DNA of 64,000 nucleotides from Myxococcota bacterium (GTDB taxonomy: Bacteria > Myxococcota > Kuafuiibacteriia > Kuafuiibacteriales > Kuafuiibacteriaceae): NCBI GenBank assembly GCA_039024635.1, contig JBCCQA010000017.1, positions 23,624-87,623 of the forward strand, in the 5' to 3' direction. How positions within the stretch are numbered: position 1 is the first letter of the stretch; every line of letters begins with the position of its first letter. This document shows, in pieces, positions 1 to 19,353 of this stretch. The notes under the pieces are model-generated. The model did no database searches. It saw only the letters and a list, made by a program, of their open reading frames with translations, and was not told where the DNA came from. The position numbers and the translations under genes are program-made.

Positions 1-1578
1 TGACCAAAGTATTTGGGAGTCACTGGTCGGAAGCCTACATGCAGAGCTTTCTCTTCCCTCGACGGACGCGACCGACCAGCGATCACTAGCTTCCACGGAG
101 GCTTCAGATGAATCAATGATGGGCTGAGCTCGCTCGAGGAGGTCCGCGAGAGCGGCTCGTGCGGTCGTCGTCACCTGACTCCAGCTCTCAAAGCGGTCGC
201 TCTGAGACGCCTCCATTAGCCTTCGTATGAATTGCTTCATCGCGGAGGGAAGGACGGGCGTCGTGTGGCTACGCTGGGATCTCTCGAGTCCTGGACTTGA
301 GATCACCAAAGTCCAAGCGTCTTCGGGTGCCTTACCTGTCAGCGCGTAGAGCAGGGTTGCGCCGAGTGAGTACATGTCCGAGCGCTCATTCGATCTCTGA
401 GGGGCCGACGTTGTCTCGGGTGCCTGATAGCCAGCGTCGTTGGCATCAGCGGACGTGGAGATAGAGCCCAACGCGAAATCCGTCACCTGGCTGCGCCCGT
501 CTTTCCGAACCATCACGGTGTGAGGACACAGAGCTCGATGGATGACACCCTTCTCACAGGCGGCAGCTAGGCCGTTTGCCACATCCAGGGCGAGTTCGAG
601 AGCACGACGCACCGGCAGCGGACCACTCGCTTCGACCAGCTCGGCAAGCGATAGGATAGCGACGTGCTCGAAAACGAGCATGGAAGGCTTGCTGTCGGCA
701 TCCAGGACACGAACGATGTTGGGATGATCAAGCGACGCTAGTCGTCTCATCTCCTCCAAGCACCGAGACGGGGTCTCATCAATTCCCTTGAAGATCTTCA
801 CCGCTACCGTCATCGCCAGCGACTCGTGGAAAGAGCGAAAGGTCACAGAGGCGGCGGTCTCGCGCATTAGCTCCTGGAGCGTAAAGCGACCTATCCGCTC
901 ACCTGGGCCAAAACGACGTAAGGTGGACTCTTCCCTTGAACGATTCGCTTCTAGGGAAAAATCAGCCTGCATCCTCTCGCCAGAAAGCCTATTGCCAGCA
1001 GCGGTCTTTGAGGAAGAAACCACCGCGTAGTTCGTATCCGCGTCCGATATCATAGTCGACCAACGCTGGGCCCGGGACTTCGCCTTCTTGATAGGTCGAG
1101 GCTTCAGTTCGCCCTTTCGCTCTGCCTCTTCCAACTGGCGGAGTCTTGTTCGTGTAATGAGTCTTCCTTTCTCGACAAGGATCCCTCCTGTCACTGGATG
1201 TAGAATATCGCGAGTGGTGCGCTTCCCGACCAGTGGCTCAATATCCAGGACCTTGTCGATGAACTCCCCTTCCTTTAAGCCGACAACGACGTCCGGTCCA
1301 AAAACGACGACTTGACACGCGAGTCGAGAATCTGACGAAACATGCGCCAAAGTGGCTAGGGTTAGCTCCTCTCGCTTGGTCTTCGGAGAGACTGAGGTTG
1401 CTGGACCTGACAAGCGAACGTGGCAGGTAGCACACAGACCGTTTCCTCCGCAGGCCGCCAGCATTCTGCTTCCGTGGGACTGAAGGGCGTCGAGCAATCG
1501 CGACTCGGGCCCAACGTCAAGGAAGGTTGTTCGACCAGAGCCTCTTCGCAGTTCTACCGTATGTTTGACAGACGACAT
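1..1578 (-). CDS. 2Fe-2S ferredoxin-like module fused to a degenerate Hanks-type kinase (pseudokinase); 3' end outside the window
   Basis: Absent from the ORF track because it has no stop in the window. My reverse-strand translation from ATG 1578-1576 stays open to position 1 (about 526 codons). N-terminus MSSVKHTVELRRGSGRTTFLDV..AACGGNGLCATCHV..LACQ gives C-x5-C-x2-C-x35-C (adrenodoxin-type ligand spacing). The kinase-like part keeps VAVKI, YQAPE and SDMYSLG. It reads HRALCPHT instead of HRDxKxxN, DFA instead of DFG, and has no G-x-G-x-x-G loop. Confidence 0.8.
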   Translation of the reverse strand, partial: MSSVKHTVELRRGSGRTTFLDVGPESRLLDALQSHGSRMLAACGGNGLCATCHVRLSGPATSVSPKTKREELTLATLAHVSSDSRLACQVVVFGPDVVVGLKEGEFIDKVLDIEPLVGKRTTRDILHPVTGGILVEKGRLITRTRLRQLEEAERKGELKPRPIKKAKSRAQRWSTMISDADTNYAVVSSSKTAAGNRLSGERMQADFSLEANRSREESTLRRFGPGERIGRFTLQELMRETAASVTFRSFHESLAMTVAVKIFKGIDETPSRCLEEMRRLASLDHPNIVRVLDADSKPSMLVFEHVAILSLAELVEASGPLPVRRALELALDVANGLAAACEKGVIHRALCPHTVMVRKDGRSQVTDFALGSISTSADANDAGYQAPETTSAPQRSNERSDMYSLGATLLYALTGKAPEDAWTLVISSPGLERSQRSHTTPVLPSAMKQFIRRLMEASQSDRFESWSQVTTTARAALADLLERAQPIIDSSEASVEASDRWSVASVEGRESSACRLPTSDSQILWS

Positions 1579-1593
1579 GGATCCGAACTCTCG

Positions 1594-2577
1594 CTAGCCA
1601 AGGTCCGCCAGCTCATCCAAACGGAGCATTTCTTCCCTCGCCCAACGAGAGCCATGTACTTTCTTCAGTGCAAGCAACTCGTCCCGGGCTTCGGCGCAGT
1701 CTCGGAACCTGTCCCTTGGGTTCTTTGCGAGACCTCGAAGTATGAACGTCGAGAGATCAGCCAGACAAGGACGACCCGGATGAGCGGCTTCGAGTGAGGA
1801 GCAGACTCCGTTCATATGGCCAACGAGAAGTTCACTACCTTGACCTCCAAAGGGCATGACGCCGGTGGCGGCCTCGTAGAGGAGGACGCAAACTGCGTAG
1901 AGATCCGATTGAGGCGTGGCTCCGCTGCCCGCGATCTGTTCCGGCGGCATATACGCTGGCGTACCAAGAACCCAACCTGTCCGAGTGGCTCGTTCTGAGT
2001 GGACAACGCTGTCCCGACCGCGAACTCCCAGAGCCAGGCCGAAGTCGAACAGGACGACCTTGAGCCGGGGCACCATACGAATGGAGATATTGGCCGGCTT
2101 GATGTCGCGATGAACCCACCCGCTCTGATGAACCGCGGTGCACGCGGACAGGAGTTGAAGACCGATCGTGACGAGATCCTGGATGGCAAGACTACCCATC
2201 CTGAGAAGAACATCCTCCAGTGTGAGCTCCGCTAGTCGCTCAAGCACAAGAACCTTTCGACCGTCTACCAGGTCAAGTTCGTCCAGGAGCTGCACGACGT
2301 GAGGGTGCTCTATGGAGCTCAGCGCCTCTACTTCTCTTTCGAACCTGAAGGTACCCGAGATTGAGCTCCCTTGTTCCACGGGTAGCTGGATCTTAAGAAC
2401 AACGGGTCTTCCGGAGACCCGATCAAAGGCCTCGATCGCGTCTGAAGAACCGCCACAACCGATAACCCTCTTGACGTCAAACCGGCGAGAAAGCTGTCTT
2501 GGTAGCCCTGCTCCGGAGGAGTCCCGCCTTCTAGGAGCTCGCGGCCAGAGCGACTCGGGGACCTGCTGATTTACCAT
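1594..2577 (-). CDS. Ser/Thr protein kinase (Hanks-type), catalytic motifs intact
   Basis: ORF 1594..2655. Motifs IGCGGSSDAIEAF, VVLKI, HRDIKPANI, DFGLA, GTPAYMPPE. ATG at 2577 (MVNQQ..) preferred over GTG at 2655, which would overlap the upstream gene by 125 nt. Confidence 0.85.
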   Translation of the reverse strand: MVNQQVPESLWPRAPRRRDSSGAGLPRQLSRRFDVKRVIGCGGSSDAIEAFDRVSGRPVVLKIQLPVEQGSSISGTFRFEREVEALSSIEHPHVVQLLDELDLVDGRKVLVLERLAELTLEDVLLRMGSLAIQDLVTIGLQLLSACTAVHQSGWVHRDIKPANISIRMVPRLKVVLFDFGLALGVRGRDSVVHSERATRTGWVLGTPAYMPPEQIAGSGATPQSDLYAVCVLLYEAATGVMPFGGQGSELLVGHMNGVCSSLEAAHPGRPCLADLSTFILRGLAKNPRDRFRDCAEARDELLALKKVHGSRWAREEMLRLDELADLG

Positions 2578-3166
2578 GGGCTTCAAGCTCCTCAAAAATC
2601 GAACGGCTGTGAACAAACGACTTGTTTGCCTCACGAATAAGCTTGTCTTCGACACTCTCCAGCTCCGGCCGATTTAACCAGTCCGAAAGCCTACCGCGGA
2701 TCTTCTTCGAGCTTCCTATCTCCCCGAAGTCGAAGAAGCTCCAGGTCTTCTTTTCAGACCAGCCGGCCTGCGCTCGCCGTAGAATGACCGCGCCCCCGGT
2801 CACATCTCCGAAGTAGCGGACGTAGGCGTGGCCAAGAACGAAGAGAGGGCTGCGCTCTGCGGCCGATTCGATAGCTGTCGCGTACTCCAGGGAGGCCTCA
2901 CCAATCTTCAATCGCCTGCCTTTGAGGTCTTGCCGAAGTCGGGATGCTCGATGGAGACGCCAATCGCTGAACGGGCCGAATAAGCCGCTTGATAGAACGC
3001 TCTCCATGGCATCGTATACCGGCAGAAGCTGAGCCATGTAGTGGCTAAACTCGTCCAGTGAGACTTCACTTGCGAGAAGCCGCCGGGCAAATCGAGTGCC
3101 CTCGATGCTTCGGTGAGCGTCATCGGTTGAGTCTCGAAGACTAGCTGTCAGGAATGGCTGTTTCAT
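2531..3166 (-). CDS. Haem oxygenase (HO-1/HmuO/BphO family)
   Basis: 211 aa. LRDSTDDAHRSIE matches the proximal-His helix signature (L-x-x-A/S-T-x-x-x-H-x-x-x-E). GHAYVRYFGDVTGG matches the distal-helix signature AHAYTRYLGDLSGG. Confidence 0.8.
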   Translation of the reverse strand: MKQPFLTASLRDSTDDAHRSIEGTRFARRLLASEVSLDEFSHYMAQLLPVYDAMESVLSSGLFGPFSDWRLHRASRLRQDLKGRRLKIGEASLEYATAIESAAERSPLFVLGHAYVRYFGDVTGGAVILRRAQAGWSEKKTWSFFDFGEIGSSKKIRGRLSDWLNRPELESVEDKLIREANKSFVHSRSIFEELEAHGKSAGPRVALAASS

Positions 3167-3821
3167 TCAGTTGATCCTCCTTAGTAATGTTCGAGTCTAG
3201 CTTTGAGAAGACTCCGTCGAGATCAGCAACCAGGTCGGAAGTCCCTGCCGCGAATAGGTCGGATACAGGAGCTACATTCGAGGTCTGGAGACCGGCTAAG
3301 GAGCGCTGCAGATGCCGCACGGCCGCTACGGCTGCTCGGCGATTTCGCACCTCCGCCCAGAGAGCCTCTTTCAGGCGTCGACTGGCCTCTCGAAGGTCGT
3401 TGCTGCCCGACTCGGTCGAGAGCGCTTCGAGGGCTCGCTTCTGACTCAGCATCTCCGCTCGAAGCTCGATGATGGTCTGTTCCTTGATCTGCAGAGCGGC
3501 CATCAACTTCTCAATGCTCGGGCTCTCGGTATCTCTTGGTTCCCCTCTAGCATCGGACTCAACGGGCTTGGGTGGCGCGAGCTGCAGAGCGCCGCTGTGG
3601 GCCAAGATATCGCCGACTGAGTCTTTGAGGTAGCCTCGTGCTACCGCCTTGAGACGATTGCACGTTGCAGAGTCAAAGATGCCGCTTTCAGTAATGGAGC
3701 GGTCGGGATCGTCTACGTACTTCTGGCAGGCTAGCTCGATCGTCTTAGAGAGCTCAGGATGACCTCCTTCGTTGTCAGAGAGGTGGGCTTTGAGCATCCG
3801 ATAGACAACATCAGATTTCAT
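3141..3821 (-). CDS. Hypothetical protein, N-terminal globular part plus long coiled-coil-like region
   Basis: 226-aa ORF. ATG at 3821 lies 3 nt after the stop of the upstream gene. Heptad-like stretch IEKLMAALQIKEQTIIELRAEMLSQKRALEAL. No family recognised. Confidence 0.6.
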   Translation of the reverse strand: MKSDVVYRMLKAHLSDNEGGHPELSKTIELACQKYVDDPDRSITESGIFDSATCNRLKAVARGYLKDSVGDILAHSGALQLAPPKPVESDARGEPRDTESPSIEKLMAALQIKEQTIIELRAEMLSQKRALEALSTESGSNDLREASRRLKEALWAEVRNRRAAVAAVRHLQRSLAGLQTSNVAPVSDLFAAGTSDLVADLDGVFSKLDSNITKEDQLNETAIPDS

Positions 3822-3824
3822 TTC

Positions 3825-4742
3825 TCAGACTCCGAATGCGAATAGGATGCCCGCGATGGCTAGCGCAGCACTTGCTAGCCCGAGAACCACCGCATGCCGA
3901 TTCCTACGCGGCTCAATTGGTACTTCTGTCGCCTCCACAGTCAGAGACTGAGGCGAAACCGGGGAGTCACTGATGACATGATTCACTCGCATCTGCTCTC
4001 GTGTCGCCGTCTCCCACTGAACATCGACGCGGAGACCCTTCATAGAAGGTCGATGCACTGGTTGAGGGACTACCGGAATAGGAGGAGAAACGGTCAGCGA
4101 AGGAGGCGGCACCACCGGAACGCCGTACTTCGAAGCCTGGGTTTCTTGAAATGAGCAAAGTCCTTGCCATCTCTGATAGACCTCGACGCAAGCAGTCTGG
4201 AGGGTCTTTTGTGACGTGCTTTCCGACAAAGCGCCGATCGGTTCACATGCAAGAAGCGACTCAATGAAGAGTCGCATCGCGTCGAAGGTCGGGTCCTCAT
4301 GATTCGCGTCTACGAGCATGAAGCCAAGCCTCACTAGTTCCGGGTGGTGTTCGTAGAGCTCAGCCAGGCGGGGTGCCATTTTGATGAAAGACTCCAGGTG
4401 CAGCATGGAGATCAGTACTAGAATTGAAGCTTGAGGTGATGATGCAATAGCCCTGAGCTTTCCAAGATCATCACAGGGGACGATCCGCACCTCACGATCG
4501 TCTTGTGCCATGAACTCGAGGCTTCCGCTCTCGTAGGACAGGTCCGGTTCCGATTGGTACTGACTCCGCAGGGGATCATCCTTGATGGAGCTTGCAGCCA
4601 TTAGATGCGTGAGGCCGCTTTGCGAGCACAAATCAAGCAGCCGAACCCGCTTGCCGGTATCTCGAGCTACGCGAGAAAGGGCAAAGGCTACAGTTCCGAC
4701 TGCAGCTGGCGCCCCTACATGGGCTATGACTATCGTGCTCAT
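3825..4742 (-). CDS. ParA/MinD-fold protein with degenerate Walker A, Pro-rich linker and C-terminal TM anchor
   Basis: MSTIVIAHVGAPAAVGTVAFALSRVARDTGKRVRLLDL resembles the deviant Walker A region (KGGxGKT) but lacks both lysines. C-terminus HAVVLGLASAALAIAGILFAFGV is hydrophobic. ATG 4742 overlaps the upstream stop (ATGA). Confidence 0.5.
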   Translation of the reverse strand: MSTIVIAHVGAPAAVGTVAFALSRVARDTGKRVRLLDLCSQSGLTHLMAASSIKDDPLRSQYQSEPDLSYESGSLEFMAQDDREVRIVPCDDLGKLRAIASSPQASILVLISMLHLESFIKMAPRLAELYEHHPELVRLGFMLVDANHEDPTFDAMRLFIESLLACEPIGALSESTSQKTLQTACVEVYQRWQGLCSFQETQASKYGVPVVPPPSLTVSPPIPVVPQPVHRPSMKGLRVDVQWETATREQMRVNHVISDSPVSPQSLTVEATEVPIEPRRNRHAVVLGLASAALAIAGILFAFGV

Positions 4743-4939
4743 GGTCCATCCCACTTGAACGTGTCGAATACAGCAAGCTTCTCCACCTCCGCCGAAGGTG
4801 AGGATGCCTGGCTCGCCACCGATTCGGTGTCCGGACCCTCGTGGCCAAGCTCGCGAACAAGCTCTGCCGGATCAGGGCGCTTGGCATCCATGAGATCGTG
4901 CATCCAGTTGACACACTCTATGATCGAACCGGAGCTCAT
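4739..4939 (-). CDS. Small hypothetical protein (66 aa)
   Basis: ORF whose ATG (4939) overlaps the kinase stop and whose TGA overlaps the next ATG, both as ATGA. Supported only by this coupling. No family recognised. Confidence 0.4.
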   Translation of the reverse strand: MSSGSIIECVNWMHDLMDAKRPDPAELVRELGHEGPDTESVASQASSPSAEVEKLAVFDTFKWDGP

Positions 4940-6345
4940 AGCTCTTGGTCTCCAATAGGAACGGCCGGGAAGCTGAGTATCTCGAGCTCACCGTTTGCGT
5001 CGGCTCTGAGCTCGATTCCATCTGGAGGGATGGGCAGGACCCTTGGGAAGCCATCCGCACCGGCGAGCCATCGAACGACAGAAACGACTTCGCTGAACTC
5101 TCCCCCATCGAGAACTAGTTGGCCGAATTCGACAGCGAACAAAGGGAGTCGAGTCTCCCGCACGGCCGTCTCGACGCGGCCGCCTTCATGGAGCCTCATG
5201 GCTACGTGCCTGGTTCCAAGTGGTTCCCATAAAAGAAGCTCTCGAGCAGAGAGCCAGCTCGAGCGCAGCGGAAGGTCGAGGAGGCTCGTAAACTCGTGTA
5301 TTGGCGAGGAGCCTTCAAAGTTCTGTACAGAGCAGCTTTGAACCCAGCCAATCTCTGCTCCGTGGGTCGCGACAATAGCGCTTCGATCGGGAGAAACAGC
5401 GAGGTAGCGCAGGTTCCTGTCGTCGGCTCGTAGCGTTTCTCTGTGGCATGAGCCAAGACGCCGAACCCGTCGACGCTCGCTTATGACGACCTCATCTCTG
5501 CATACATCCAACAAACGAAGTGGTTGAGCGGAGAGCCTCCAGCTAGCTTGGTCTGCGCCCAGCCATTGGACGCCGTCTCGATGCATGAACCAAGCCCAAT
5601 CCGCGCCGAACGAGAAGTCCTCAGCATCGAGCATCGAAGCCACCCAGTCTAGATCTGGGAGACGACGGCTCGGGGCTCCACTGAGAAGGCAAGCGAGCAA
5701 ACCGTCGAGTCCCGAAGACCAACGATGGTGTCGTGCGAACCTGCTACGCTCGGAGGGCAGGGGGAAGGAGCCGTTGCGCGCTTCTAATCCTACCACACCC
5801 AGCGAGTAGGCGTCGGACTGACGGAGGCCGCAGTGCCACAGCCGTTCTGGTGCCAGGTACTCGAGTGAGCCCTCGAACCGACGATGCACGGATGTGTACT
5901 CGCTTGAAGCGGCTGATCCGAGATCGGCGAGCCGCCAGTCGAGCCCCACATCTCTTCGAAAAACAAGGATGTTCTCGGGCTTCACATCTCGATGAAGCCA
6001 ACCCCATTGGTGAATGCGACCAAGCGCCAATGCAATGCCCCGGACAAGTGAATCAAGGTCCGAGTCCGCGAGCCGCCTTTGGAGAAGGACGCGCCTCAAT
6101 GATCCGTCCGACGCGATTGGCATTGCGAAGTACCAGCATTGCGAAGACTGGTCGAAGCCCACGTCGAGGACCCGTGGGGTTCCGTCTCCATCCAAGGCAA
6201 GCAGAGCATTGACCTCGCTCCACCACTTTGGTCCTGTGCACATCTTGACGGCGACGGGGTCTTCGTTCCAACCCCTCCTGGCAGCTACGACTGTTCCTTG
6301 CGCGCCGCTGCCCAGGCTACGCTCGAAGTGTGCGTATCGGTCCAT
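4936..6345 (-). CDS. Ser/Thr protein kinase with about 200-aa C-terminal domain of unknown function
   Basis: ORF 4936..6480. LGSGAQGTVVAA, VAVKM, HRDVKPENILV, DLGSA (DFG variant), LEYLAPE. ATG at 6345 (MDRYAHFERSLGSG) sits 2 nt after the upstream stop and is preferred. Confidence 0.85.
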   Translation of the reverse strand: MDRYAHFERSLGSGAQGTVVAARRGWNEDPVAVKMCTGPKWWSEVNALLALDGDGTPRVLDVGFDQSSQCWYFAMPIASDGSLRRVLLQRRLADSDLDSLVRGIALALGRIHQWGWLHRDVKPENILVFRRDVGLDWRLADLGSAASSEYTSVHRRFEGSLEYLAPERLWHCGLRQSDAYSLGVVGLEARNGSFPLPSERSRFARHHRWSSGLDGLLACLLSGAPSRRLPDLDWVASMLDAEDFSFGADWAWFMHRDGVQWLGADQASWRLSAQPLRLLDVCRDEVVISERRRVRRLGSCHRETLRADDRNLRYLAVSPDRSAIVATHGAEIGWVQSCSVQNFEGSSPIHEFTSLLDLPLRSSWLSARELLLWEPLGTRHVAMRLHEGGRVETAVRETRLPLFAVEFGQLVLDGGEFSEVVSVVRWLAGADGFPRVLPIPPDGIELRADANGELEILSFPAVPIGDQEL

Positions 6346-6347
6346 TT

Positions 6348-6965
6348 CTAGTTGAGGAGCTCCGCGAGGATCTCGGCGTGAGAGCGGCTTGCTTCCCTCG
6401 AACGGCGAACGCCCTCTAGCACTTGCTCCGAGCCGCAGATGAACTTGCCCTTCCCGCATCCAGGAGCGGTCTGCAAACACCCAAGCCCTCCGACGGCAAA
6501 CTGCCCGAGAAAGCCCTCTAGCATGCCTTCGGCGAGAGGATCGAGGTCACTCATCTCGGAAGCATAGGCTTCGCCAATTCCGTCTGAGAGTTGGACTTCG
6601 AAAAAGCCGGAGGATGCGTGTTCCCATCGGAACACGAGTTCTCCTAGTCCGCTTCCTTTCCAAAGGTCCCGTATGAGTGCGTCCAGCTCTGCCATGGTTC
6701 GCTCTCTGATTCCAACCGAGTCGGCAGTGCCGAGCTCGTCCTCGAACCGTCGAGCAAGACGACTGCCGTATCGTACGCCGCACTGTCTGAGCACAGATGC
6801 TGAGGCATCGCCGAGTTCAAAGCGCAGGGCAGAGACGAATCCGATTAGCCATGAAGAATCAACTGCGATTAGACGCGTATTTCCAGCGCTTCTGAGAACA
6901 CCGCGAGCGGCTTCGAATCGAAGATAGGATGATCGCGAGAAGTGATTGAGGTCCACACGCGTCAT
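6348..6965 (-). CDS. V4R-like (4-vinyl reductase/BchJ-type) small-molecule-binding domain protein, divergent
   Basis: RLIAVDSSWLIGFVSALRFELGDASASVLRQCGVRYGSRLARRF mirrors the N-terminal V4R pattern seen in the paralogue at 7687-8349. C-terminal GCLQTAPGCGKGKFICGS is Cys-rich but departs from E-x-x-C-x3-G-x3-C-x-F. ATG 6965 overlaps the upstream stop (ATGA). Confidence 0.55.
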   Translation of the reverse strand: MTRVDLNHFSRSSYLRFEAARGVLRSAGNTRLIAVDSSWLIGFVSALRFELGDASASVLRQCGVRYGSRLARRFEDELGTADSVGIRERTMAELDALIRDLWKGSGLGELVFRWEHASSGFFEVQLSDGIGEAYASEMSDLDPLAEGMLEGFLGQFAVGGLGCLQTAPGCGKGKFICGSEQVLEGVRRSREASRSHAEILAELLN

Positions 6966-7447
6966 GCTGCGCGCTCCCGCTCCCCCAAGACCTCGACACA
7001 ATCCTTGAGGTATGGTTCCAGGAGGCCAAAGGCTTCTGCCGAGAGCTGCTTTTCACAGGTCGTGAGCAGACTCGAGTAGGAATCCTTCACGAATTCCTGC
7101 GACAGACCGATTCCTTCGAGAATCGTCTTTAGCCAAAGGAGAAGGTTGTCCCTAAGGAAGAGCCGATCGTCCTTCACCATGGCGAGCACGCAGTATCGAA
7201 GAACAAGGCTGAGGTCTCTCTGCGCCTTCCTCTCCCCTTCCTTGTACCTCTGGGAAATGTCTGAGTATCTGGAGAGGACACTTTCCAGTACCTCGTCGAC
7301 GATCAAACCTTCACGTTGTTCGACTTCCGCGCTGGCTTTGAGCCGACCGGGAAGGCCGTCGCTGTACTGCGTCAACGACGCTGTCTCCTTAGAGGTCAGG
7401 TAGCGTCCCTCGGCTGACTGCAGCATGTTCTCAATTTGTCCGTTCAT
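6962..7447 (-). CDS. Phycobiliprotein-fold globin (allophycocyanin/phycocyanin-like), attachment Cys absent
   Basis: 161 aa, the length of an APC subunit. QSAEGRYLTSKETASLTQY..GRLKASAEVEQREGLIVDEVLESV aligns with ADAEARYLSPGELDRIKSF..RRLRIAQTLTENRERIVKQAGDQL. ERKAQRDLSLVLRYCVLAMVKDD aligns with [23 protein letters not shown]. The R-D pair is kept and the Cys position is Ala. Confidence 0.75.
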   Translation of the reverse strand: MNGQIENMLQSAEGRYLTSKETASLTQYSDGLPGRLKASAEVEQREGLIVDEVLESVLSRYSDISQRYKEGERKAQRDLSLVLRYCVLAMVKDDRLFLRDNLLLWLKTILEGIGLSQEFVKDSYSSLLTTCEKQLSAEAFGLLEPYLKDCVEVLGERERAA

Positions 7448-7453
7448 CTCTTC

Positions 7454-7687
7454 TCACTCCCAGTTGAAATCGCCAAAGATGGCTATGGTTTCGATGGATT
7501 CGCCACACGACTTGGATGGCCTTACACTTTGATTCTGACGCCTGAGTCCTACGGCGAAGAACTCCTCGACTCGATATGAACGCCAGCTCTCCGCTTCGAA
7601 CGACTCGGCCGAAGCGCTCGCTTGAGCCAGGTCACCGAACCACTGGCGCACTTCGGTTTGAGGCCAAGGCATCGCTAGCGCAGACAC
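7454..7687 (-). CDS. Small hypothetical protein (up to 77 aa)
   Basis: GTG at 7687 overlaps the stop of the upstream V4R gene. An internal ATG near 7670 is an alternative start. No family recognised. Confidence 0.4.
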   Translation of the reverse strand: MSALAMPWPQTEVRQWFGDLAQASASAESFEAESWRSYRVEEFFAVGLRRQNQSVRPSKSCGESIETIAIFGDFNWE

Positions 7688-8349
7688 TACAAACGCTCCA
7701 TGATCTCATTCGCTGAAGCACCTTCTTGAACCCAGAACTGAGCTGCGTTGATCCGCTTTGATGAGCCAACTAGGAACTTGCAGAATCCCTCGCCCATTGA
7801 ATAGCACTGGATCTCAATGGCGCTGAGCTCTCTCTTGGCGAGTCGACCGAACACGGCGGCGAACATTCCGGCATAGTAGTGACAGACGACTTCACCGACG
7901 TTTCCGATGCTCTTCGCCACGGCGGAGTCATAGAGGTCGACGAAGATAAGTCCTTCGGACCGGTGGCTCAGGTCGTACTTCCACACGCCCCACCCCGAGG
8001 CCTGCAGCGGCCACCACCATGACTCGAGGAGGAACCCGAGGGCTGCGCCATCTGGCTGATATCCGAACTGGGTTTCGAATCGGCCCATGAAATCATCAAT
8101 GTCTTTTTCGCCCCATTTAAACCCGCACTGATACATGACTTCGCCCGCGGCATCTCCAAGCTCGGTTTCGAGCGCCGCTTGAAATGAAACAACGAAGTCT
8201 TCGGTGGCTAGCATCAGTCGGCTGCCGAAAGTATTCAGCAACTTCGTTCCCGAAGCGCTTGGCGCAAAGAACCGGCGTGCGCTGAAACGGTTGTGCAGGA
8301 CGAGTCTTCCTTGCGCAGAGCTCTCTGAGACGTGCATTTCTGAAACCAT
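7687..8349 (-). CDS. V4R domain protein
   Basis: ORF 7687..8436 (TTG). ATG at 8349 (MVSEMHV..) preferred. FVVSFQAALETELGDAAGEVMYQCGFKWGEKD, and the canonical C-terminal AIEIQCYSMGEGFCKFLVGS (E-x-x-C-x3-G-x3-C-x-F-x-V). Confidence 0.7.
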   Translation of the reverse strand: MVSEMHVSESSAQGRLVLHNRFSARRFFAPSASGTKLLNTFGSRLMLATEDFVVSFQAALETELGDAAGEVMYQCGFKWGEKDIDDFMGRFETQFGYQPDGAALGFLLESWWWPLQASGWGVWKYDLSHRSEGLIFVDLYDSAVAKSIGNVGEVVCHYYAGMFAAVFGRLAKRELSAIEIQCYSMGEGFCKFLVGSSKRINAAQFWVQEGASANEIMERL

Positions 8350-8463
8350 CGTGCTGCGACTGTAGGCAGGCTTGGGCGGATTGCAAGGTGTGGGTGTCAC
8401 TTTTTTGACCGAAATCGACCAGCCTCTTGTCGTCAAGTGTAGGCGTAGAGGGCAGGGGAGCTT

Positions 8464-8495
8464 CCTTCAGCTTAATGGATGCTACCTTCAGTTTA
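8464..8495. promoter_or_regulatory. Direct repeat CCTTCAG(C/T)TTA x2, 21-nt register, in the divergent promoter region
   Basis: ccttcagctta at 8464-8474 and ccttcagttta at 8485-8495, between the V4R operon start and the ferredoxin gene start. A possible transcription-factor site. No known consensus matched. Confidence 0.2.
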
Positions 8496-8561
8496 GATTG
8501 AGAAGCGGTGCGGTCGAGTCTGCTTGCAATCATCTTAGTTGTCCGTCCTTAGTGTTGGAGG

Positions 8562-9041
8562 ATGAAAGACGTCACCATTGAGGGTCTTGGTCAGCCCGTT
8601 TGTGTGAAGACAAACAAGAGGATCATCGATGCCCTCCTTCAAGGCGGTAAGCCGCCTCTGATGGCCTGCGGCGGGAAGGGGCTTTGCGCGACCTGCCACG
8701 TGTTCGTAGATGCCGAAGCTGATGCGCTCTCGCCGCAAACGCCTCGAGAGCGAGCATCTTTGGCTGCCCTTCGTGGCCGGACGAATGCCAGCCGTCTTGC
8801 TTGCCAGGCAAAGGTCCGTGGACCTGTTCGTGTTCGACGCCCGGACGGTCGCTTTATTGAAGCAGCCATGGACGTAGAGTCCTTCGTGGGAAAACGAGCG
8901 ACCGACGATATTCTCCATCCCGTCGATGGGCGCCTTCTGATTGAGCGCGGGAAGCTGATCACGCGCTCGCGAATTGTTCAGCTCAAGACAGTGGATGTGG
9001 ACGTCGGTGAACTGAAGAAGCGCTGCCTCACTGTCGTCTAG
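8562..9041 (+). CDS. 2Fe-2S ferredoxin (adrenodoxin-type Cys spacing) with about 60-aa C-terminal extension
   Basis: MACGGKGLCATCHV..LACQ gives C-x5-C-x2-C-x35-C. The extension FVGKRATDDILHPVDGRLLIERGKLITRSRIVQL is paralogous to LVGKRTTRDILHPVTGGILVEKGRLITRTRLRQL in the gene at 1-1578. Confidence 0.8.
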   Translation: MKDVTIEGLGQPVCVKTNKRIIDALLQGGKPPLMACGGKGLCATCHVFVDAEADALSPQTPRERASLAALRGRTNASRLACQAKVRGPVRVRRPDGRFIEAAMDVESFVGKRATDDILHPVDGRLLIERGKLITRSRIVQLKTVDVDVGELKKRCLTVV

Positions 9042-9134
9042 TAGTGGCCCTTATGACGCTCGCTAAGTCTGGATGTGGCGCCGTGTTGTTCCGGTGATTC
9101 GGATCGGGGCGATGTCCGAAGGTCACCGCGCCTT

Positions 9135-12100
9135 CTAGGGCTCGGGAATGAGCTGGCCCGGGGTCCATGGACCGCCTGCATCTCGGAGGCGTCGTTCGAA
9201 GGCGGGAAGCTTGTCGCTCAGGAAGGCGTTGAGCTGGGCACGCAGCGCAGCGAACGCGGTCTCGGCGATCTCTACTTGCGCACGGTGGGTCTGGGTCGGC
9301 CCGTAGGTTGAATACGATGTGCCGGCTCGGAGGTTGTCGAGCCGCATCGCGATGGTATGCCGGGGACGCTCACCGCCTTCCTGATAAGCGGGGGACCCGA
9401 GCACTTGGACGACCATGGTGTCTAGCTCCAGTCGCAGGCGTCGATACTCCTGATCCAGCGCGTCGGGGGCCGAAGGCGTGTGCTCGAGGGCCTTGGCCAA
9501 GAAAGAGAATCGCTTGCCGAGCCGCTTGGTACTGCGAGCAAAAGCGCTCACGCCCCGTTGAAGCTCGGCCACCCGCCGCTGAAAGGCCATCGCCTCCTCG
9601 GGCGATGCGCCCTGCAGGCTACCTTTTCGTAGCTGAACCACGTCGAACTCCACCGGGCCGTCCAGCACCTTGGCAGCGCCGTCGATCTTCTCGAGCAGGG
9701 TGACGCTGTAGCGACCTGGAGCAGCCAGTGGGCCGACTGGGTCGTCCTGCTCACCGTAGTAGGATGGCTCTTTGACGTCCACGGCGTCCGGCGCCGGATG
9801 GCGCAGGTCCCACGCCACTCGATGCATTCCCGCCTTGGTCTCGCCGCGGACGCGACGCACGGTGCTACCCGCCCCGTCTCTCACCAAGAGGATGATCTCG
9901 GGATCCCTTTGTCGACGTTCTCGCTCCACCGCTTCGAAGCCTTCGAAGGGCGTATCCTTGCCGGCCTTGATGAGCTTCTTCTCTCGGGCCTGCCGGGCTT
10001 TGGCCAATGAGCGCAGCGGCTCACGAAGGTAGTAGGTGAAGACAGCCCCAAAGGGCGGGTTGGGCGCCACGTAGTAGTTGTGGCCTTGGTAGGCCTTTTC
10101 CTTGCGCCCTAGAGTCCCTCTCGGCAGGTACCAGTGCGCCTTTCGAACCGAGAACAGCTTGGCCGGGGTCCCTGCCATCAGCTCGGCGCTCACCTCTCGC
10201 AGGGCCGAGTAGTCGTCCAGGATCCAGAAACCACGTCCAAAGGTAGCGCCCACCAGATCATTCTCCCGCCGCTGAATGGCCAAGTCGCGGAAAGAGATCG
10301 TCGGGGCCTTCTTGCCTCCGAGCTTTAGCCAGTTCTTTCCGCCGTCGACGGTAAAAAAGACGCCGAACTCGGTCCCGGCAAAGAGCAAGCCAGGCTTCAC
10401 ATGGTCCTGGACCATCCGCCACACGAGGTGTCGATCGGGTAGATTCCCTACGATGCTGCGCCAACTCCGTCCTCGGTCCGTGCTCTTTACGAGGTAGGGC
10501 TGAAAGTCGCCGTTCTTGTGATCGTCAAGAGCGACGTAGACGGTGTCGACGTCGAACAAATCGGCCTTGATGTCGTTGATGAAGGCCTGCTCGGGGACGC
10601 CGGGCAGCGAAGACACCGGGATCCTCCGCCAACTTCCGCCACCGTCTTCGGTCACCTGGAGAAGTCCGTCGTCGGTGCCGGCGTAAATCAAACCGTCCTG
10701 CTGGGGAGATTCGGCCAGCGAGGTGACGGTGCCGAAAGTGGACATCGCGTACATGTCCCAAGGCGAGTCCCAGCTCCACAGTCGCTCCATCATGGGCTCG
10801 CCGAGCCGCTGGATGCTTCGGGTCAGGTCGCCGGAGATGGCGGTCCAAGAATTGCCTCTGTCCTCCGAGCGCCACACCCGCTGGGACGCGAAGTAGAGCC
10901 GCTTCGGGTCATGGGGGCTGACCAAAATGGGCGCGTCCCAGTTGAAGCGTTCAGGTGGGTCGTCCGCGTCGGGCTGAGGCTGGATGTGAACGATCTCCCC
11001 CGTCCGACGGTCGACCCTGACCAGGTTTCCGCCCTGCCACTCGGAGTACATGATGTCCGGGTTGCCGGGCTCGGTCGCCGGTTGATGGCCGTCTCCACCC
11101 AAGGTGATGAACCAGTCCGCGTTCCGAATGCCGTTCGAGCTGTCGGTTCGGGACGGGGCGCCCTGAGTGTTGTTGTCCTGCGTGCCTCCGTAGACGTTAT
11201 AGAAGGGCTCGGCATCGTCGACCGCCACCTTGTAGAACTGGGTGACGGGCAGGTTGGCGAAGAAACGCCAGGTCTCGCCGTGGTCGAAGGACTCGTAGAT
11301 TCCTCCGTCCGTGCCGGCGAGGAGGTAGTCTGGATCGTCCTTGCGGAAGTTCAAAGAGTGGTTGTCCGAATGCTTGAACTTCTCCGACATATTCTTGAAG
11401 CTCTTCCCGCCGTCGTCCGAAATCTGAAAGCGCACGTCGACGAGGTAGATCCGATCGAACACGTGAGGGCTGGCTTCGAGCTCTTGGTAGTAGTGGGGCC
11501 CGGTGGCGCGAGAGACGGTGTCGGAACGACGGGTCCAAGAGCTTCCCCGGTCAGTGGAGCGATAGACCCCGCCCTTTCGTCGGTTTTCTTCGATCGCCGC
11601 GTAGAGAACGTCAGGCTTCATGGGAGAGATGGCGAGGCCGATCTTGCCCATGTTGCCTTTCGGTAGGCCCTTCTTCAGCCGCTCCCAGGTCTCGCCCCCA
11701 TCGACTGAGCGATAGATGCCCGACTCTGGGCCGCCGCCCATGTAGGCGGCCACGGTTCGTTGTCGCTGCCAGGTTGCTGCATACAGTAGGTCCGGATCTC
11801 GGGGGTCGATCTCCAGGTCAGTGGCCCCAGTCCACTCGCCCACCCGGAGGACGTTCTTCCACGTCCGGCCTCCGTCAGTGCTCTTGTACACGCCTCGGTC
11901 TCCACCCTTGGACCACAAGGGTCCCTCGGCCGCGACCCAAAGCGTGTTCGAGTCGCTCGGGTGAATGATGATCTTGCCGATGTGTTCGGAGGCCTTCAGG
12001 CCCATGTGTGTCCAGCTGTGGCCTCCATCCCCCGAGCGATGAAGGCCGTCGCCGTAGGCGACGTGTCGGCCGCCCACGTTCTCTCCCGTCCCCACCCAGA

Positions 12101-12476
12101 CCGTATGGGGGTTACTGGGATCGATGGCGATGTCACCGACCGAGTAGGCGCCACGCCCGTCGAAGATCGGGCGCCAGGTGGTGCCGGCATTCACGGTCTT
12201 CCATACGCCGCCCGAACCGACCCCCACGTACCAGGTGTTGGGGTCATCGGGCCGGACGGCGATGTCGGCGATGCGTCCCGACATGAGAGCGGGCCCGATG
12301 GAGCGAAGCTTGAGTCCGCCGAAAGTCTGGCTGGACCAAGGCTTGGCGTCCTCATCTTCGCCGGCGCCCGCGCGGGAGGACAAACCGGCGGCGCACGCGC
12401 TGATGCCGATGAAGAAGAAACCAATGAGGCGAAGGGTCAGGGCCCCCGAAGTTCGATGGGAATGATGACTCAACAC
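9135..12476 (-). CDS. VPS10/sortilin-type BNR (Asp-box) repeat protein, probable lipoprotein
   Basis: ORF 9135..12605. At least ten Asp-boxes (SGDGGHSW, STDGGRTW, SVDGGETW, STDRGSSW, SEDRGNSW, TEDGGGSW, STDRGRSW, TVDGGKNW and others). GTG at 12476 gives VLSHHSHRTSGALTLRLIGFFFIGISAC (lipobox-like) and is preferred over 12605. Confidence 0.8.
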   Translation of the reverse strand: MLSHHSHRTSGALTLRLIGFFFIGISACAAGLSSRAGAGEDEDAKPWSSQTFGGLKLRSIGPALMSGRIADIAVRPDDPNTWYVGVGSGGVWKTVNAGTTWRPIFDGRGAYSVGDIAIDPSNPHTVWVGTGENVGGRHVAYGDGLHRSGDGGHSWTHMGLKASEHIGKIIIHPSDSNTLWVAAEGPLWSKGGDRGVYKSTDGGRTWKNVLRVGEWTGATDLEIDPRDPDLLYAATWQRQRTVAAYMGGGPESGIYRSVDGGETWERLKKGLPKGNMGKIGLAISPMKPDVLYAAIEENRRKGGVYRSTDRGSSWTRRSDTVSRATGPHYYQELEASPHVFDRIYLVDVRFQISDDGGKSFKNMSEKFKHSDNHSLNFRKDDPDYLLAGTDGGIYESFDHGETWRFFANLPVTQFYKVAVDDAEPFYNVYGGTQDNNTQGAPSRTDSSNGIRNADWFITLGGDGHQPATEPGNPDIMYSEWQGGNLVRVDRRTGEIVHIQPQPDADDPPERFNWDAPILVSPHDPKRLYFASQRVWRSEDRGNSWTAISGDLTRSIQRLGEPMMERLWSWDSPWDMYAMSTFGTVTSLAESPQQDGLIYAGTDDGLLQVTEDGGGSWRRIPVSSLPGVPEQAFINDIKADLFDVDTVYVALDDHKNGDFQPYLVKSTDRGRSWRSIVGNLPDRHLVWRMVQDHVKPGLLFAGTEFGVFFTVDGGKNWLKLGGKKAPTISFRDLAIQRRENDLVGATFGRGFWILDDYSALREVSAELMAGTPAKLFSVRKAHWYLPRGTLGRKEKAYQGHNYYVAPNPPFGAVFTYYLREPLRSLAKARQAREKKLIKAGKDTPFEGFEAVERERRQRDPEIILLVRDGAGSTVRRVRGETKAGMHRVAWDLRHPAPDAVDVKEPSYYGEQDDPVGPLAAPGRYSVTLLEKIDGAAKVLDGPVEFDVVQLRKGSLQGASPEEAMAFQRRVAELQRGVSAFARSTKRLGKRFSFLAKALEHTPSAPDALDQEYRRLRLELDTMVVQVLGSPAYQEGGERPRHTIAMRLDNLRAGTSYSTYGPTQTHRAQVEIAETAFAALRAQLNAFLSDKLPAFERRLRDAGGPWTPGQLIPEP

Positions 12477-12644
12477 GATCGCTCCTCGCCGAGTGCGGCA
12501 AAACCGAAGCCTCGGCGTACCCGCGGCTACACCGGACGTAGGGCACCGGCAACACCGCATGCGTTGGTAGGGCAGGATGCCACGGCTAAGGTGACCTACG
12601 CCCACCTAAGGCGTTTTCCAAGCGACGCTTTCCTCAGTTCGATG

Positions 12645-14596: not shown

Positions 14597-16225
14597 TCAG
14601 GAGTCGTCTAGTCGGACTGCTTTCCAGATGGTCGAGATGACGACGGATCCCTCGCCCACTGCCGAAGCCACCCGTTTGACCGAGCCGGCTCGAACGTCGC
14701 CAACGGCATAGACTCCAGATGTCGACGTCTCGAACTCGCTCTTCTTTCCGGCCCCAGTACCCGTGAGCACGAAGCCTCGGTCGTCCAACTCGACCAAGTC
14801 GCCGAGCCAACCGGTGTTGGGCGCGGCGCCGATCATGATGAACAGGGCACAATCATCGAGGCGCTGCGTACGGCCGTCGCGATGCTCGATGGTGACGCGT
14901 TCCAGCCTGTCGTCACCCCACAGGTCACTAACCTCGGTTTCGAAGTGGATTGTAATTCCTTGCTCATCTTCGAGCCTTGTCGAAAGGTAGTCCGACATAG
15001 ATTGGGAGAGGCTGACTCCTCGGACTACCAAGTGGACGTGCTTGGCTACGCGGCACAGGTACATCGCTGCCTGACCTGCCGAGTTGCCACCGCCAATGAT
15101 GACCACGGTTCGACCCTCGCAAACCCGTCCTTCGCTTCGGGTAGCGGCGTAGTAGATGCCGGCTCCTTCGAAGTCTTGCAGCCGGTCCAATGGTAGTCGT
15201 CGGTATTGGACTCCAGTAGCGATGAGAATGGCTCTTCCATGAACCGTCGCCCGGTCCCCGGTTCCGTCCCCCAGTTCAAGTGAGAATGCACCAAGGCCCT
15301 TCTCTATGGATCGAACGGTGCGAGGAACGGCGAACTGTGTACCGAACTTCAGGGCCTGAATCTCGCCTCGCCAAACTAGGTCCGAGCCTGAGATTCCGGT
15401 CGGGAAACCCAAGTAGTTCTCGATTCGAGACGAGGTTCCCGCCTGCCCGCCGACCGCGAGTTCATCAATGACCAAGGCCTTGAGACCTTCGGCGCCAGCA
15501 TAGACGGCAGCTGCAACGCCGGCCGGACCGGCACCGACGATTATGAGCTCATACCGGCTTCCGTCCTGAGCGCTCCGATCCAGACCGAGGAGTCGAGCCA
15601 GCGATGAGGGCGTTGGTTCGTTCAGGAGCTGGTCCTTACCAAAGGTCACCATAGGCCCGGCCTTAGTGCCGCAACGCTTTGCGAGCTCTTCGGCTTCAGG
15701 CGTGTCGACCTGAAGCTCTCGAAAGGGTATCTTGTTGCGCTCAGCGAAATTGGCGATGTGGGCTATTCTGCGGTCAATTCGGGCGCCAACGATCGTAAGC
15801 GCAGAGTCGCCCTCCTCGAGCTGTCGACGTCGCCGTGCCGCGAACACGGTCATTATGATGTCGCTCATCTCCGGTATGCGAGCCATGAGTCGGAGCAGGT
15901 CGTCTCTGGCTACGGCAAGAACTCGCGTCATGGCGAAAGCCCGCATCGTGAATCGCTGGACCCCCCCCTGAAGAAAAGAGATCTCTCCCGTGAACTGTTT
16001 GGGCCCCAAGCCGATCGAGAGGTAGGGCTCGAGGGTAGAGTCGTCCACGAGTCGGAGGTCTCCTTCGAGCACGTAGTGAAAAGTGTCGATTGGGTCGCCA
16101 GGCCTTATGACGACCTCTCCTTCCTCGAAGACGATCTCCCTACCAACGGTGCGCAGAGCCTCCACGTGGCTGTCGTGGAGCGGCGTACGTCGCATCTGGG
16201 ACAAGTCGGGGGCCAGAGACTCCAT
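14597..16225 (-). CDS. Cyclic-nucleotide-binding domain fused to a thioredoxin-reductase-like flavoprotein lacking the CxxC
   Basis: The N-terminal cNMP-binding fold contains GEISFLQGG. Two dinucleotide folds, IIVGAGPAGVAAAVYA and VVIIGGGNSAGQAAMYL. Where TrxB has SACATCDG, this protein reads YYAATRSEG. The ATG lies 5 nt after the RND gene stop. Confidence 0.8.
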   Translation of the reverse strand: MESLAPDLSQMRRTPLHDSHVEALRTVGREIVFEEGEVVIRPGDPIDTFHYVLEGDLRLVDDSTLEPYLSIGLGPKQFTGEISFLQGGVQRFTMRAFAMTRVLAVARDDLLRLMARIPEMSDIIMTVFAARRRRQLEEGDSALTIVGARIDRRIAHIANFAERNKIPFRELQVDTPEAEELAKRCGTKAGPMVTFGKDQLLNEPTPSSLARLLGLDRSAQDGSRYELIIVGAGPAGVAAAVYAGAEGLKALVIDELAVGGQAGTSSRIENYLGFPTGISGSDLVWRGEIQALKFGTQFAVPRTVRSIEKGLGAFSLELGDGTGDRATVHGRAILIATGVQYRRLPLDRLQDFEGAGIYYAATRSEGRVCEGRTVVIIGGGNSAGQAAMYLCRVAKHVHLVVRGVSLSQSMSDYLSTRLEDEQGITIHFETEVSDLWGDDRLERVTIEHRDGRTQRLDDCALFIMIGAAPNTGWLGDLVELDDRGFVLTGTGAGKKSEFETSTSGVYAVGDVRAGSVKRVASAVGEGSVVISTIWKAVRLDDS

Positions 16226-19200: not shown

Positions 19201-19344
19201 GACACTGGTGACGACGACTTGTGGAAGAGCTAGATCCGGATACCACTCAATCGGGAGAGTCCGAGATGTCGCCGCTCCGGCCAGGGTGATAACGATGGCG
19301 ACGACAGAGGCGAAGACCGGGCGACGGATAAAGAAGGCGTACAC
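16231..19344 (-). CDS. RND efflux transporter permease (AcrB/HAE-1 type)
   Basis: 1037 aa. MYAFFIRRPVFASVVAIVITLAG.. start, 12-TM architecture with two large periplasmic loops, conserved GLVVDDAIVVIENIER. Confidence 0.9.
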   Translation of the reverse strand: MYAFFIRRPVFASVVAIVITLAGAATSRTLPIEWYPDLALPQVVVTSVYTGATSETVESTVTSVLEEAINGVEGMRYVESTSSNDGVSTITVTFERSRDLDIASVDVQNRVASVQGRLPPEVRAIGVDVRRATQAIILGIGMYAENDEYDSVFISNYVDRYIRDELRRIKGVGEARIFGERKYAMRIWVDPIRLAANQLSANEIVRALEEQNIQVAAGQIGQPPVPDTTILQVALSVNGRFDSAEEFEKLVLRSDEAGGLVRLEDVGRAELGAESYSSALRFNRREAVGLGIFQLPNSNALEIEQAVKKRLEELSVQFPPGLEYVIAFNPTEIVSESIEEVLYTLVGTILLVILVIFAFLQRWQSTLIPAVTIPVSLVGTFIFVGAFGFSINTLTLFGLTLATGLVVDDAIVVIENIERHAREQGLKKRAAALSGTSEVFGAVIATSLVLIAVFAPVAFFPGTTGVMYQQFALTIAFSIALSSLTALTLAPALAGLLLDVQPPPQRGPFALFNRILDAGTRRFEIVLKAVLRRGKSIAILIFLGLVGLTYGLNTLLPASFVPAEDQGYFITVIQAPPGTSLDETSRIMAKVEDILQADEDVANTFAILGFSFEGTASNRATIFSTFTPREERPGPEHEAKAVVQRVFGPMMMVPDAIVLPFEPPPIRGVGNLGGFTFELQDRAGIGATALDEAAQELIGAAGEQSQIGLVFTTYSSGDPQLHIQLDRERSRSLGVSVDEAFGAIQVMLGSAYVNDFDLAQRSYRVYAQAEPVYRDEPDSLQTLYVRSSSGRMIPLEALVTTEERAAPQIIKHFNLFRSATLTGSPAPGFSSGDSIEAMSGVASDLPLGFDYSWSGLALEEVQSGNQTTILFLFGLILVYLVLSAQYESYVLPVIILTSVPMALLGALGAQWLRGLQNDVFCQVGLLMLIGLASKNAILIVEFAQQERREKGLDPLSAAVSAASIRLRPILMTSFAFILGVLPLVLADGASKFSRQSLGTAVFGGMLLSTLVNMVFVPLFYVLVARFAPPPELDPRES

Positions 19345-19353
19345 GCTAGGACC

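Follow-up and report, generated by a model that had tools for sequence, protein, structure and literature searches.

Gene content and layout of the cluster

The window analysed here is a 64,000-nt stretch of a Myxococcota assembly (contig JBCCQA010000017.1, positions 23,624 to 87,623 of the forward strand), and the system in question is the gene cluster at its left end, within positions 1 to 9041. This locus is very probably a pre-PcyA/BBAG bilin-biosynthesis cluster, of the kind described from non-photosynthetic bacteria, in which a haem oxygenase, a pre-PcyA ferredoxin-dependent bilin reductase (FDBR) and an iron-sulphur (Fe-S) protein are encoded together with a pair of V4R proteins from different clades and with one or two phycobiliprotein-related globins, the BBAGs (Rockwell, Martin and Lagarias, PNAS 2023, PMC10151467). 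Three genes of the Hanks kinase type are interleaved with these, and the conserved place of one of them beside the second V4R gene is the main subject of this report.

Listing and translation of the open reading frames (ORFs) placed eleven genes on the minus strand, from position 8349 to the left window edge, with a free ferredoxin gene (8562 to 9041, plus strand) diverging from them, which is the layout that an earlier note made from the sequence had proposed. Junctions were taken from gene calls on L002, a public contig of 11.6 kb that matches window positions 9035 to 1 with 100% identity over its first 9,035 bases and reaches 2.5 kb beyond the left window edge. Neighbouring genes overlap by 1, 4, 4, 4, 26 and 47 nt and are otherwise separated by gaps of 2 to 15 nt; in the stretch from V4R-B through K1 and the 66-aa protein to the 305-aa protein, 4-nt overlaps or spacings of 2 to 3 nt were found throughout. 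The features are as follows.

1 to 89, plus strand: 3' end of the FDBR gene, last 29 codons and stop, the remainder lying left of window position 1
1 to 1578, minus strand: K3, a Fer2 module and Hanks-type pseudokinase of 526 aa (Pfam Fer2 31.9 bits, Pkinase 80.6 bits); stop codon just left of position 1
1594 to 2577, minus strand: K2, Hanks Ser/Thr kinase of 327 aa from the called start (Pkinase 113 bits); the ORF reaches 2655
2531 to 3166, minus strand: haem oxygenase, 211 aa (Pfam Heme_oxygenase 95.4 bits)
3141 to 3821, minus strand: predicted coiled-coil protein, 226 aa, in the slot that PP2C occupies in relatives
3825 to 4742, minus strand: tail-anchored membrane protein, 305 aa, with an N-terminal alpha/beta domain; hydrophobic C-terminus read from the sequence
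4739 to 4939, minus strand: 66-aa protein ending ...FDTFKWDGP, of the FxxFxW[DE]-tail family
4936 to 6345, minus strand: K1, Hanks Ser/Thr kinase of 469 aa (Pkinase 88.5 bits; ORF 4936 to 6480)
6348 to 6965, minus strand: V4R-B, second V4R paralogue, 205 aa (assigned by hhalign and BLASTP comparison with V4R-A)
6962 to 7447, minus strand: BBAG, globin of phycobiliprotein fold, 161 aa (Pfam Phycobilisome 55.4 bits)
7454 to 7687, minus strand: 77-aa protein ending ...FGDFNWE, between V4R-A and BBAG
7687 to 8349, minus strand: V4R-A, 220 aa, with a three-Cys motif (Pfam V4R 57.6 bits)
8350 to 8561: divergent intergenic region, holding a 15-nt direct repeat
8562 to 9041, plus strand: free 2Fe-2S ferredoxin, 159 aa, CX5CX2C...C, with a conserved C-terminal extension (Pfam Fer2 36.7 bits)

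As expected from the earlier note, Pfam searches returned Heme_oxygenase, Phycobilisome, V4R (for V4R-A), Fer2 twice and Pkinase three times. The proposed co-occurrence of these genes in related genomes was likewise found: as dozens of independent contigs show this arrangement, it is not a product of chance. Particular to the window copy are the ferredoxin-pseudokinase fusion, the missing PP2C gene and a globin without the canonical bilin-attachment cysteine; compared to its relatives, this copy has its FDBR gene shifted to the far end and its free ferredoxin gene in inverted orientation.

Bilin synthesis, globin and V4R proteins

The haem oxygenase is canonical, as had been assumed: it aligned in full with human HO-1 (E 3e-17), the proximal His and the GDVTGG stretch (GDxxGG motif) being in register. 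The same note had reported no FDBR and had taken biliverdin for the end product. The first statement proved an artefact of the window edge and the second is wrong for this locus: on L002 an FDBR gene (8947-9816, minus strand; 289-aa call; Pfam Fe_bilin_red 76.8 bits) adjoins the last kinase gene. It is convergent to the K3 gene and overlaps its 3' end, and the window edge cuts through it, as could be read directly at the junction; its true start is probably at Met57. The reductase-less operon that the note envisaged, with biliverdin as ligand of the globin or V4R proteins and Ser/Thr phosphorylation as output, would suit the window in holding no complete FDBR gene. It would also suit two related loci, L044 and L045, which lack an FDBR within 10 kb, as well as the reported binding of biliverdin by some BBAGs. 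However, the reductase gene abuts the cluster here and is present in all five same-lineage loci, so that this version is highly improbable and, for the locus at hand, is refuted by the contig extension.

Reductase homologues at 49-65% identity led to the loci L004, L006/L007, L008 and L010, and a metagenome scan with a V4R-A alignment added 30 more loci at 60-67% identity. An apparent majority without FDBR among these 30, as judged by tblastn with the window FDBR, was rejected as a sensitivity artefact, since a hidden Markov model (HMM) found distant FDBRs in L037, L043, L015, L041 and L013. When species-representative genomes were scanned with an alignment of the FDBR, only a distant cyanobacterial FDBR was returned; the lineage seems absent from such genomes, and no cultured relative was identified.

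Alignment to PcyA structures placed Thr, Asn and Glu of the window FDBR at the positions of PcyA Glu76, His88 and Asp105, and these residues are invariant in its 7 closest relatives. The published residues are Ala/Asn/Glu in pre-1, Val/Asn/Asp in pre-2 and Ala/Thr/Asp in pre-3 enzymes (PMC13446030). The window enzyme shares the Asn/Glu signature with the published pre-1 enzyme MCC5789364 and thus carries the signature of the pre-1 type, whose characterised members convert biliverdin to 3E-phytochromobilin. The FDBR of L043, a Myxococcales metagenome-assembled genome, carries the pre-3 signature Thr/Asp.

The end-to-end likeness of the 161-aa globin to allophycocyanin and phycocyanin, another proposal of the earlier note, was confirmed by its Pfam score together with structure prediction. 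An AlphaFold2 model built with 31 homologues reached a pLDDT of 94.6, and Foldseek aligned it end to end with allophycocyanin and phycocyanin subunits at TM scores of 0.78-0.83 over ~161 columns. ApcB in PDB was matched at E 8e-5. The globin thus resembles light-harvesting phycobiliproteins over the entire fold, N-terminal helices included (TM ~0.8), and keeps the Arg-Asp pair, but it lacks the attachment cysteine and is only 16-24% identical to them. The CXRD motif reads AQRD, with Ala in place of Cys. Among 31 related globins this position is occupied by Cys in 15, Gly in 10, Ala in 3, Ser in 2 and His in 1, and the whole sub-lineage around the window globin is without the cysteine; only some BBAGs carry the CXRD motif (PMC10151467). 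Because the canonical cysteine is replaced while the Arg-Asp pair is retained, a bilin would be held non-covalently. An exhaustive search of representatives with the globin returned 301 relatives, compared to a single one in the initial protein search. Four proteins from the representative search (P0008, P0013, P0051 and P0064; 835-974 aa) contain six or seven BBAG-like globin stretches in tandem.

Two V4R proteins flank the globin, as had been proposed: V4R-A is assigned by Pfam (57.6 bits) and V4R-B by profile comparison only. V4R-B had no Pfam match, aligned with the V4R-A profile in hhalign at a probability of 95.4% (E 1.9e-8) and with V4R-A itself in BLASTP at E 3e-12, and its positional counterparts in L044 and L045 match Pfam V4R. 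V4R-A is the most conserved protein of the cluster, with 329 database proteins at 60-67% identity; its named homologues are mainly from Myxococcota (57-66% identity) and Planctomycetota (~55%). In L004, on an ENA contig of 1.1 Mb, the V4R-A gene (8718-9369) is split over two frames, a 114-aa call and a second tblastn segment, which is probably an assembly frameshift.

In related loci a conserved small protein always lies between V4R-A and BBAG. An ORF ending in FxxFxW[DE] was found just upstream of the globin in ~25 loci, and the tail motif [AFL]F..F.W[DE]-COOH had 29 matches among the 3,894 stop-to-stop ORFs of all fetched loci. With the exception of one clearly spurious ORF (L002 7556-7720), the matches listed all adjoin the globin gene on its upstream side or come shortly after K1. 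Tails of the 77-aa and 66-aa proteins and their counterparts vary among ...FGDFNWE, ...FDTFKWDGP, ...FGEFNWD and ...LQGFDWD. For the 66-aa protein, the positional counterparts of L004, L006, L008 and L044 have the ending F[DQE]W[D]; by eye, the small-protein counterparts of L044 end in ...DAFEW and ...SSTWE. Both families, with counterparts in L003-L043, appear to be disordered small proteins whose shared tail may be a docking peptide; the motif is mentioned in neither PMC10151467 nor PMC13446030.

The divergent intergenic region contains a 15-nt direct repeat at 8460-8474 and 8481-8495, with a spacing of 21 nt (GCTTCCTTCAGCTTA / GCTACCTTCAGTTTA), a possible operator. The region also holds a 9-nt inverted repeat (8379-8387 and 8523-8531), and no sigma-70-like promoter was matched between 8350 and 8561.

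The 305-aa protein had been taken for a ParA fold with a dead Walker A motif, which was not confirmed. In Planctomycetota loci the corresponding position is taken by ParA/CbiA ATPases, and its position and C-terminal anchor recur in L006, L008 and the true ParA of L044; all that it shares with these counterparts is the hydrophobic C-terminal anchor and an N-terminal strand-loop-helix-strand. The Walker A motif KGGxGK[ST] is absent, the sequence reading GAPAAVGT, and neither BLASTP nor hhalign gave a significant match to the true ParA of the same cluster position. A single-sequence AlphaFold model had a pLDDT of 45, with generic Rossmann-like matches in Foldseek (best E 0.016). The 226-aa coiled-coil protein had no Pfam or NCBIfam family and no match in any related locus; the PP2C proteins at its slot in relatives measure 375-381 aa. 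In the L044 and L045 ATPase pairs, one ParA is tail-anchored.

Hanks-type kinases and their conserved position

Motif reading agreed with the expectation of two intact kinases and one pseudokinase. K1 retains VAVK, HRDVKPEN, DLG and APE, and K2 retains VLK, HRDIKPAN, DFG and PAYMPPE. K3 is a pseudokinase, because its catalytic loop reads HRALCPHT and its DFG position reads DFA; since its orthologues in L004, L006 and L008 keep HRDVKPxN and DFG, it is so specifically in this lineage. Those orthologues are also without Fer2: the ferredoxin module stands in place of the N-terminal region of K3, a fusion seen in no other locus examined. The two 2Fe-2S modules are paralogous, as had been claimed, the free ferredoxin and the K3 module being 50% identical over 141 aa, C-terminal extension included; the free ferredoxin is 54-61% identical to the Fe-S gene product of related clusters. 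In L004, L006 and L008 the K2 orthologues are encoded on the opposite strand, and their C-terminal membrane anchor has no counterpart in the window K2. K1 starts 2 nt past the V4R-B stop and ends in a C-terminal domain of ~215 aa common to Myxococcota-type orthologues; no Pfam family covers this domain, and jackhmmer from the window copy returned only itself.

The position of these genes was compared across related loci. In L004, L006/L007, L008 and L010, the FDBR gene is divergent from an operon with the order Fer2 - V4R-A - small protein - BBAG - V4R-B - kinase. L010 ends within that kinase gene, and the three loci reaching further continue with small protein - anchored protein - PP2C - kinase - haem oxygenase, the third kinase lying on the other strand. 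By tblastn, K1, K2 and K3 of the window pair with the three kinases of L004, L006 and L008. For a wider count by tblastn, loci extending at least 900 nt past V4R-B were taken as informative (n=17, own contig L002 included), and a kinase match directly downstream of V4R-B on the same strand was found in 16 of them; in the 17th, L017, a kinase ORF with an N-terminal extension starts 140 nt downstream of V4R-B. With named Myxococcota and Planctomycetota included, a Hanks kinase gene directly follows V4R-B in 18/18 informative related loci, the other genes being rearranged. Such loci often hold further kinases, a PP2C phosphatase or ParA ATPases as well.

Pfam gave the order Fer2 - V4R - 191 aa - BBAG - V4R-B - Pkinase - Pkinase - 77 aa - FDBR - haem oxygenase for L043. 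In L044 (Gemmataceae) the order is Pkinase - haem oxygenase - Fer2 - V4R - small protein - BBAG - BBAG - V4R - Pkinase - small protein - ParA - ParA, and L045, a JGI contig, has this order too, except that its ParA pair follows the second Pkinase with no small protein in between. These two loci (L044 7381-18398; L045 7201-16284) thus have tandem BBAGs, two kinases, to which L044 adds one more on the other strand, and a true ParA/CbiA pair.

A chance adjacency of the kinases to the cluster was rejected because of the conserved synteny. This also bears on a reading in which no signalling occurs at all, the locus being a pigment-protein or haem-breakdown system (photoprotection, an antioxidant bilin or iron recovery) and the kinases mere neighbours. 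Haem oxygenases commonly serve iron acquisition, which counts for such a reading. So do the properties of the globins: the function of BBAGs is stated as unknown, and recombinant BBAGs bind bilins, in some cases biliverdin, but are photo-inert and weakly fluorescent (PMC10151467). Mere neighbours would not be expected beside V4R-B in all 18 informative loci of two phyla, in frames that overlap or abut despite rearrangements elsewhere, nor fused as a pseudokinase to a ferredoxin; we consider the non-signalling reading improbable.

In some relatives the K1 and K3 domains are fused into one tandem-kinase protein of up to 880 aa (L037 3631-6270, L034 4412-6190 and L041 2143-3933), located between V4R-B and FDBR. 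Were the published pre-3 order alike, the accession gap between MBL9008304 (FDBR) and MBL9008307 (BBAG) would fit V4R-B plus such a fused kinase, which we put forward as inference only.

Pfam searches of the cluster, and of 20 larger ORFs outside it in the window, gave no phytochrome, GAF or photosynthesis gene, in line with the lack of such genes claimed before; the larger ORFs outside the cluster code for an RND efflux system, an ECF sigma factor, AraC regulators, PAS histidine kinases and a CHAT protein. Nor were phycobiliprotein lyase, linker or photosystem genes present among the window genes scanned by Pfam. Left of the window (L002 9842-11442), two same-strand genes, for a PilJ-domain protein (301 aa) and a HATPase_c-receiver protein (239 aa), share 25 nt. 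They resemble the halves of a single hybrid histidine kinase divided by a frameshift, or else are separate genes; not being conserved beside related clusters, they were rejected as cluster members. A 1,156-aa BNR/sortilin-Vps10 repeat protein is encoded convergently to the ferredoxin gene at 9135-12605 (minus strand); absent beside related clusters, it was rejected likewise. A 542-aa protein with cyclic-nucleotide-binding and pyridine nucleotide-disulphide oxidoreductase domains (14597-16225, minus strand) adjoins the RND efflux operon at 16231-23024.

Relation to known systems and a possible kinase output

The earlier note could match the architecture to no described system. This holds for the layer of kinases, pseudokinase and phosphatase, which is not discussed in PMC10151467, and fails for the core of haem oxygenase, FDBR, Fe-S protein, two V4R proteins and globin, which is that of the pre-PcyA/BBAG clusters of the pre-1 and pre-3 types; its mention of published phycobiliprotein-related globins next to bilin-biosynthesis genes was right (PMC10151467). 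The locus has all parts of that core: a haem oxygenase, an FDBR of the pre-PcyA lineage, a putidaredoxin-like 2Fe-2S protein, two V4R paralogues and a BBAG, the FDBR and V4R classes being assigned by sequence and position. The published hosts are non-photosynthetic, and that of the window, going by named relatives, is probably a Myxococcota heterotroph. Unlike the published clusters, the window interleaves three Hanks-type kinase genes, one of them for a ferredoxin-fused pseudokinase, and has two FxxFxW[DE]-tailed small proteins and a tail-anchored protein; its FDBR gene is convergent at the far end instead of adjoining the Fe-S or haem oxygenase gene, and its BBAG is without the CXRD cysteine. 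BBAGs have been proposed as ancestors of phycobiliproteins, and the cluster reductases as forerunners of PcyA. The word 'kinase' is absent from the text and supplement of PMC10151467, save for one reference title, and from the follow-up PMC13446030 (Protein Sci 2026), and a full-text literature search returned nothing tying pre-PcyA/BBAG clusters to Hanks kinases. The core had been described before; new observations are the conserved layer of Ser/Thr kinases, the fusion of a ferredoxin to a pseudokinase, and the small proteins with their tails.

The closest precedent for a kinase is the homologous slr0144-slr0152 operon of Synechocystis sp. PCC 6803, in which a V4R pair, the Fe-S protein Fd5 and a BBAG are followed by the Hanks-type kinase SpkG. 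SpkG is encoded by the last gene of the cluster, and when it is deleted the ferredoxin Fd5 of the cluster is no longer phosphorylated (PMC11863333), a ferredoxin-kinase link that resembles the one implied by the window fusion; the slr0150-slr0152 neighbours, SpkG among them, had been set aside as not conserved (PMC10151467). The Synechocystis cluster differs in having neither haem oxygenase nor FDBR, both of which are present here, so that the window cluster is not of the slr0144-slr0152 type. It also has a single kinase and no pseudokinase fusion, and its host is photosynthetic, a role in photosystem assembly having been proposed.

Two further systems were compared. Pre-2 clusters, photocobilins and photoglobins (BBAG-2 plus a B12-binding protein) likewise involve a bilin-binding globin of the same superfamily, encoded beside bilin-synthesis genes in heterotrophs. 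Their globin lineage is nevertheless a different one, photoglobins lacking the N-terminal helix pair that the window globin keeps, and their partner is a B12-binding domain in the context of a histidine kinase or an enzyme, whereas the window has Hanks kinases, V4R proteins and Fe-S modules. In bacteriophytochrome operons, bphO is paired with a PAS-GAF-PHY histidine kinase; they share with the window a haem oxygenase beside a bilin-using protein, in non-photosynthetic bacteria and, as proposed for the window, for signalling; the window, in contrast, has no PAS-GAF-PHY or GAF protein, its candidate bilin binder is a globin and its kinases are of the Ser/Thr type.

We consider it on balance probable that the locus is a heterotroph's pre-PcyA/BBAG cluster with a built-in, lineage-conserved Hanks-kinase module. 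By homology, the haem oxygenase would convert haem to biliverdin and the pre-1-type FDBR would convert this, probably, to 3E-phytochromobilin, both enzymes probably drawing their electrons from the 2Fe-2S ferredoxin; in the family of the globin, the members that have been tested bind bilins. Beyond these steps, the globin may form a complex with the two V4R proteins and an FxxFxW[DE]-tailed small protein, and the state of this complex (bilin load, redox state or light) may be coupled to K1. K1 and K2 would then phosphorylate targets, perhaps including the ferredoxin. The K3 fusion might, in the manner of a docking scaffold, bring an Fe-S module to the kinases, and as such would record a physical ferredoxin-kinase contact, while relatives would reset the system by the PP2C phosphatase that the window copy appears to have lost. 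An output via Ser/Thr phosphorylation is plausible from the conserved synteny (18/18 loci) and is consistent with the SpkG-Fd5 precedent; that signals would pass from sensor to kinase is held tentatively, at an even chance or slightly below.

Kinases that control the ferredoxin or bilin synthesis are equally compatible with the data. With the direction reversed, the kinases would stand upstream and tune bilin synthesis by phosphorylating the Fe-S protein, perhaps also the haem oxygenase or FDBR, thereby gating the supply of electrons, and the globin and V4R proteins would act as carriers or buffers. The sole experimental precedent, the requirement of SpkG for Fd5 phosphorylation (PMC11863333), is of this sort; the window itself joins a ferredoxin module to a kinase-like domain, and a PP2C in relatives fits the reversible control of an enzyme pathway. 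Yet the kinase gene is tied closest to V4R-B and BBAG, whereas the positions of the ferredoxin, haem oxygenase and FDBR genes vary, and Planctomycetota loci retain kinases though FDBR is absent within 10 kb. We regard the reversed direction as unlikely.

Several points weigh against a kinase module fed by a bilin-loaded globin. Myxococcota are rich in Hanks kinases, which raises the background chance of adjacency, although this abundance does not explain an order conserved across two phyla. The link of the kinases to the bilin, the globin or the V4R proteins is drawn from gene order, and the C-terminal domain of the window K1 is barely recognisable as the family domain (E 0.003). Bilin binding by the window's Cys-less globin sub-lineage is putative, the Arg of the motif being also replaced in 4 of the 5 closest globin relatives. 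The pre-1 assignment of the FDBR stands on two residues. Finally, the tested BBAGs are photo-inert, so that light sensing is not implied (PMC10151467).

Altogether, the kinase synteny and the ferredoxin-pseudokinase fusion make the function of BBAG clusters testable, and the synteny connects these clusters of heterotrophs with the as yet unexplained, SpkG-dependent phosphorylation of Fd5 in Synechocystis. Should this link hold, a globin-based bilin sensor with Ser/Thr-kinase output would join the phytochrome and cyanobacteriochrome types. A bolder and somewhat unlikely reading is that the globin, V4R and Fe-S proteins form the sensory head of an unrecognised bilin (or bilin plus redox) signalling system acting through Hanks kinases, a pseudokinase scaffold and PP2C, conserved from Myxococcota and Planctomycetota to SpkG-Fd5; were it true, the ancestral job of the phycobiliprotein family would have been signalling, not light harvesting.

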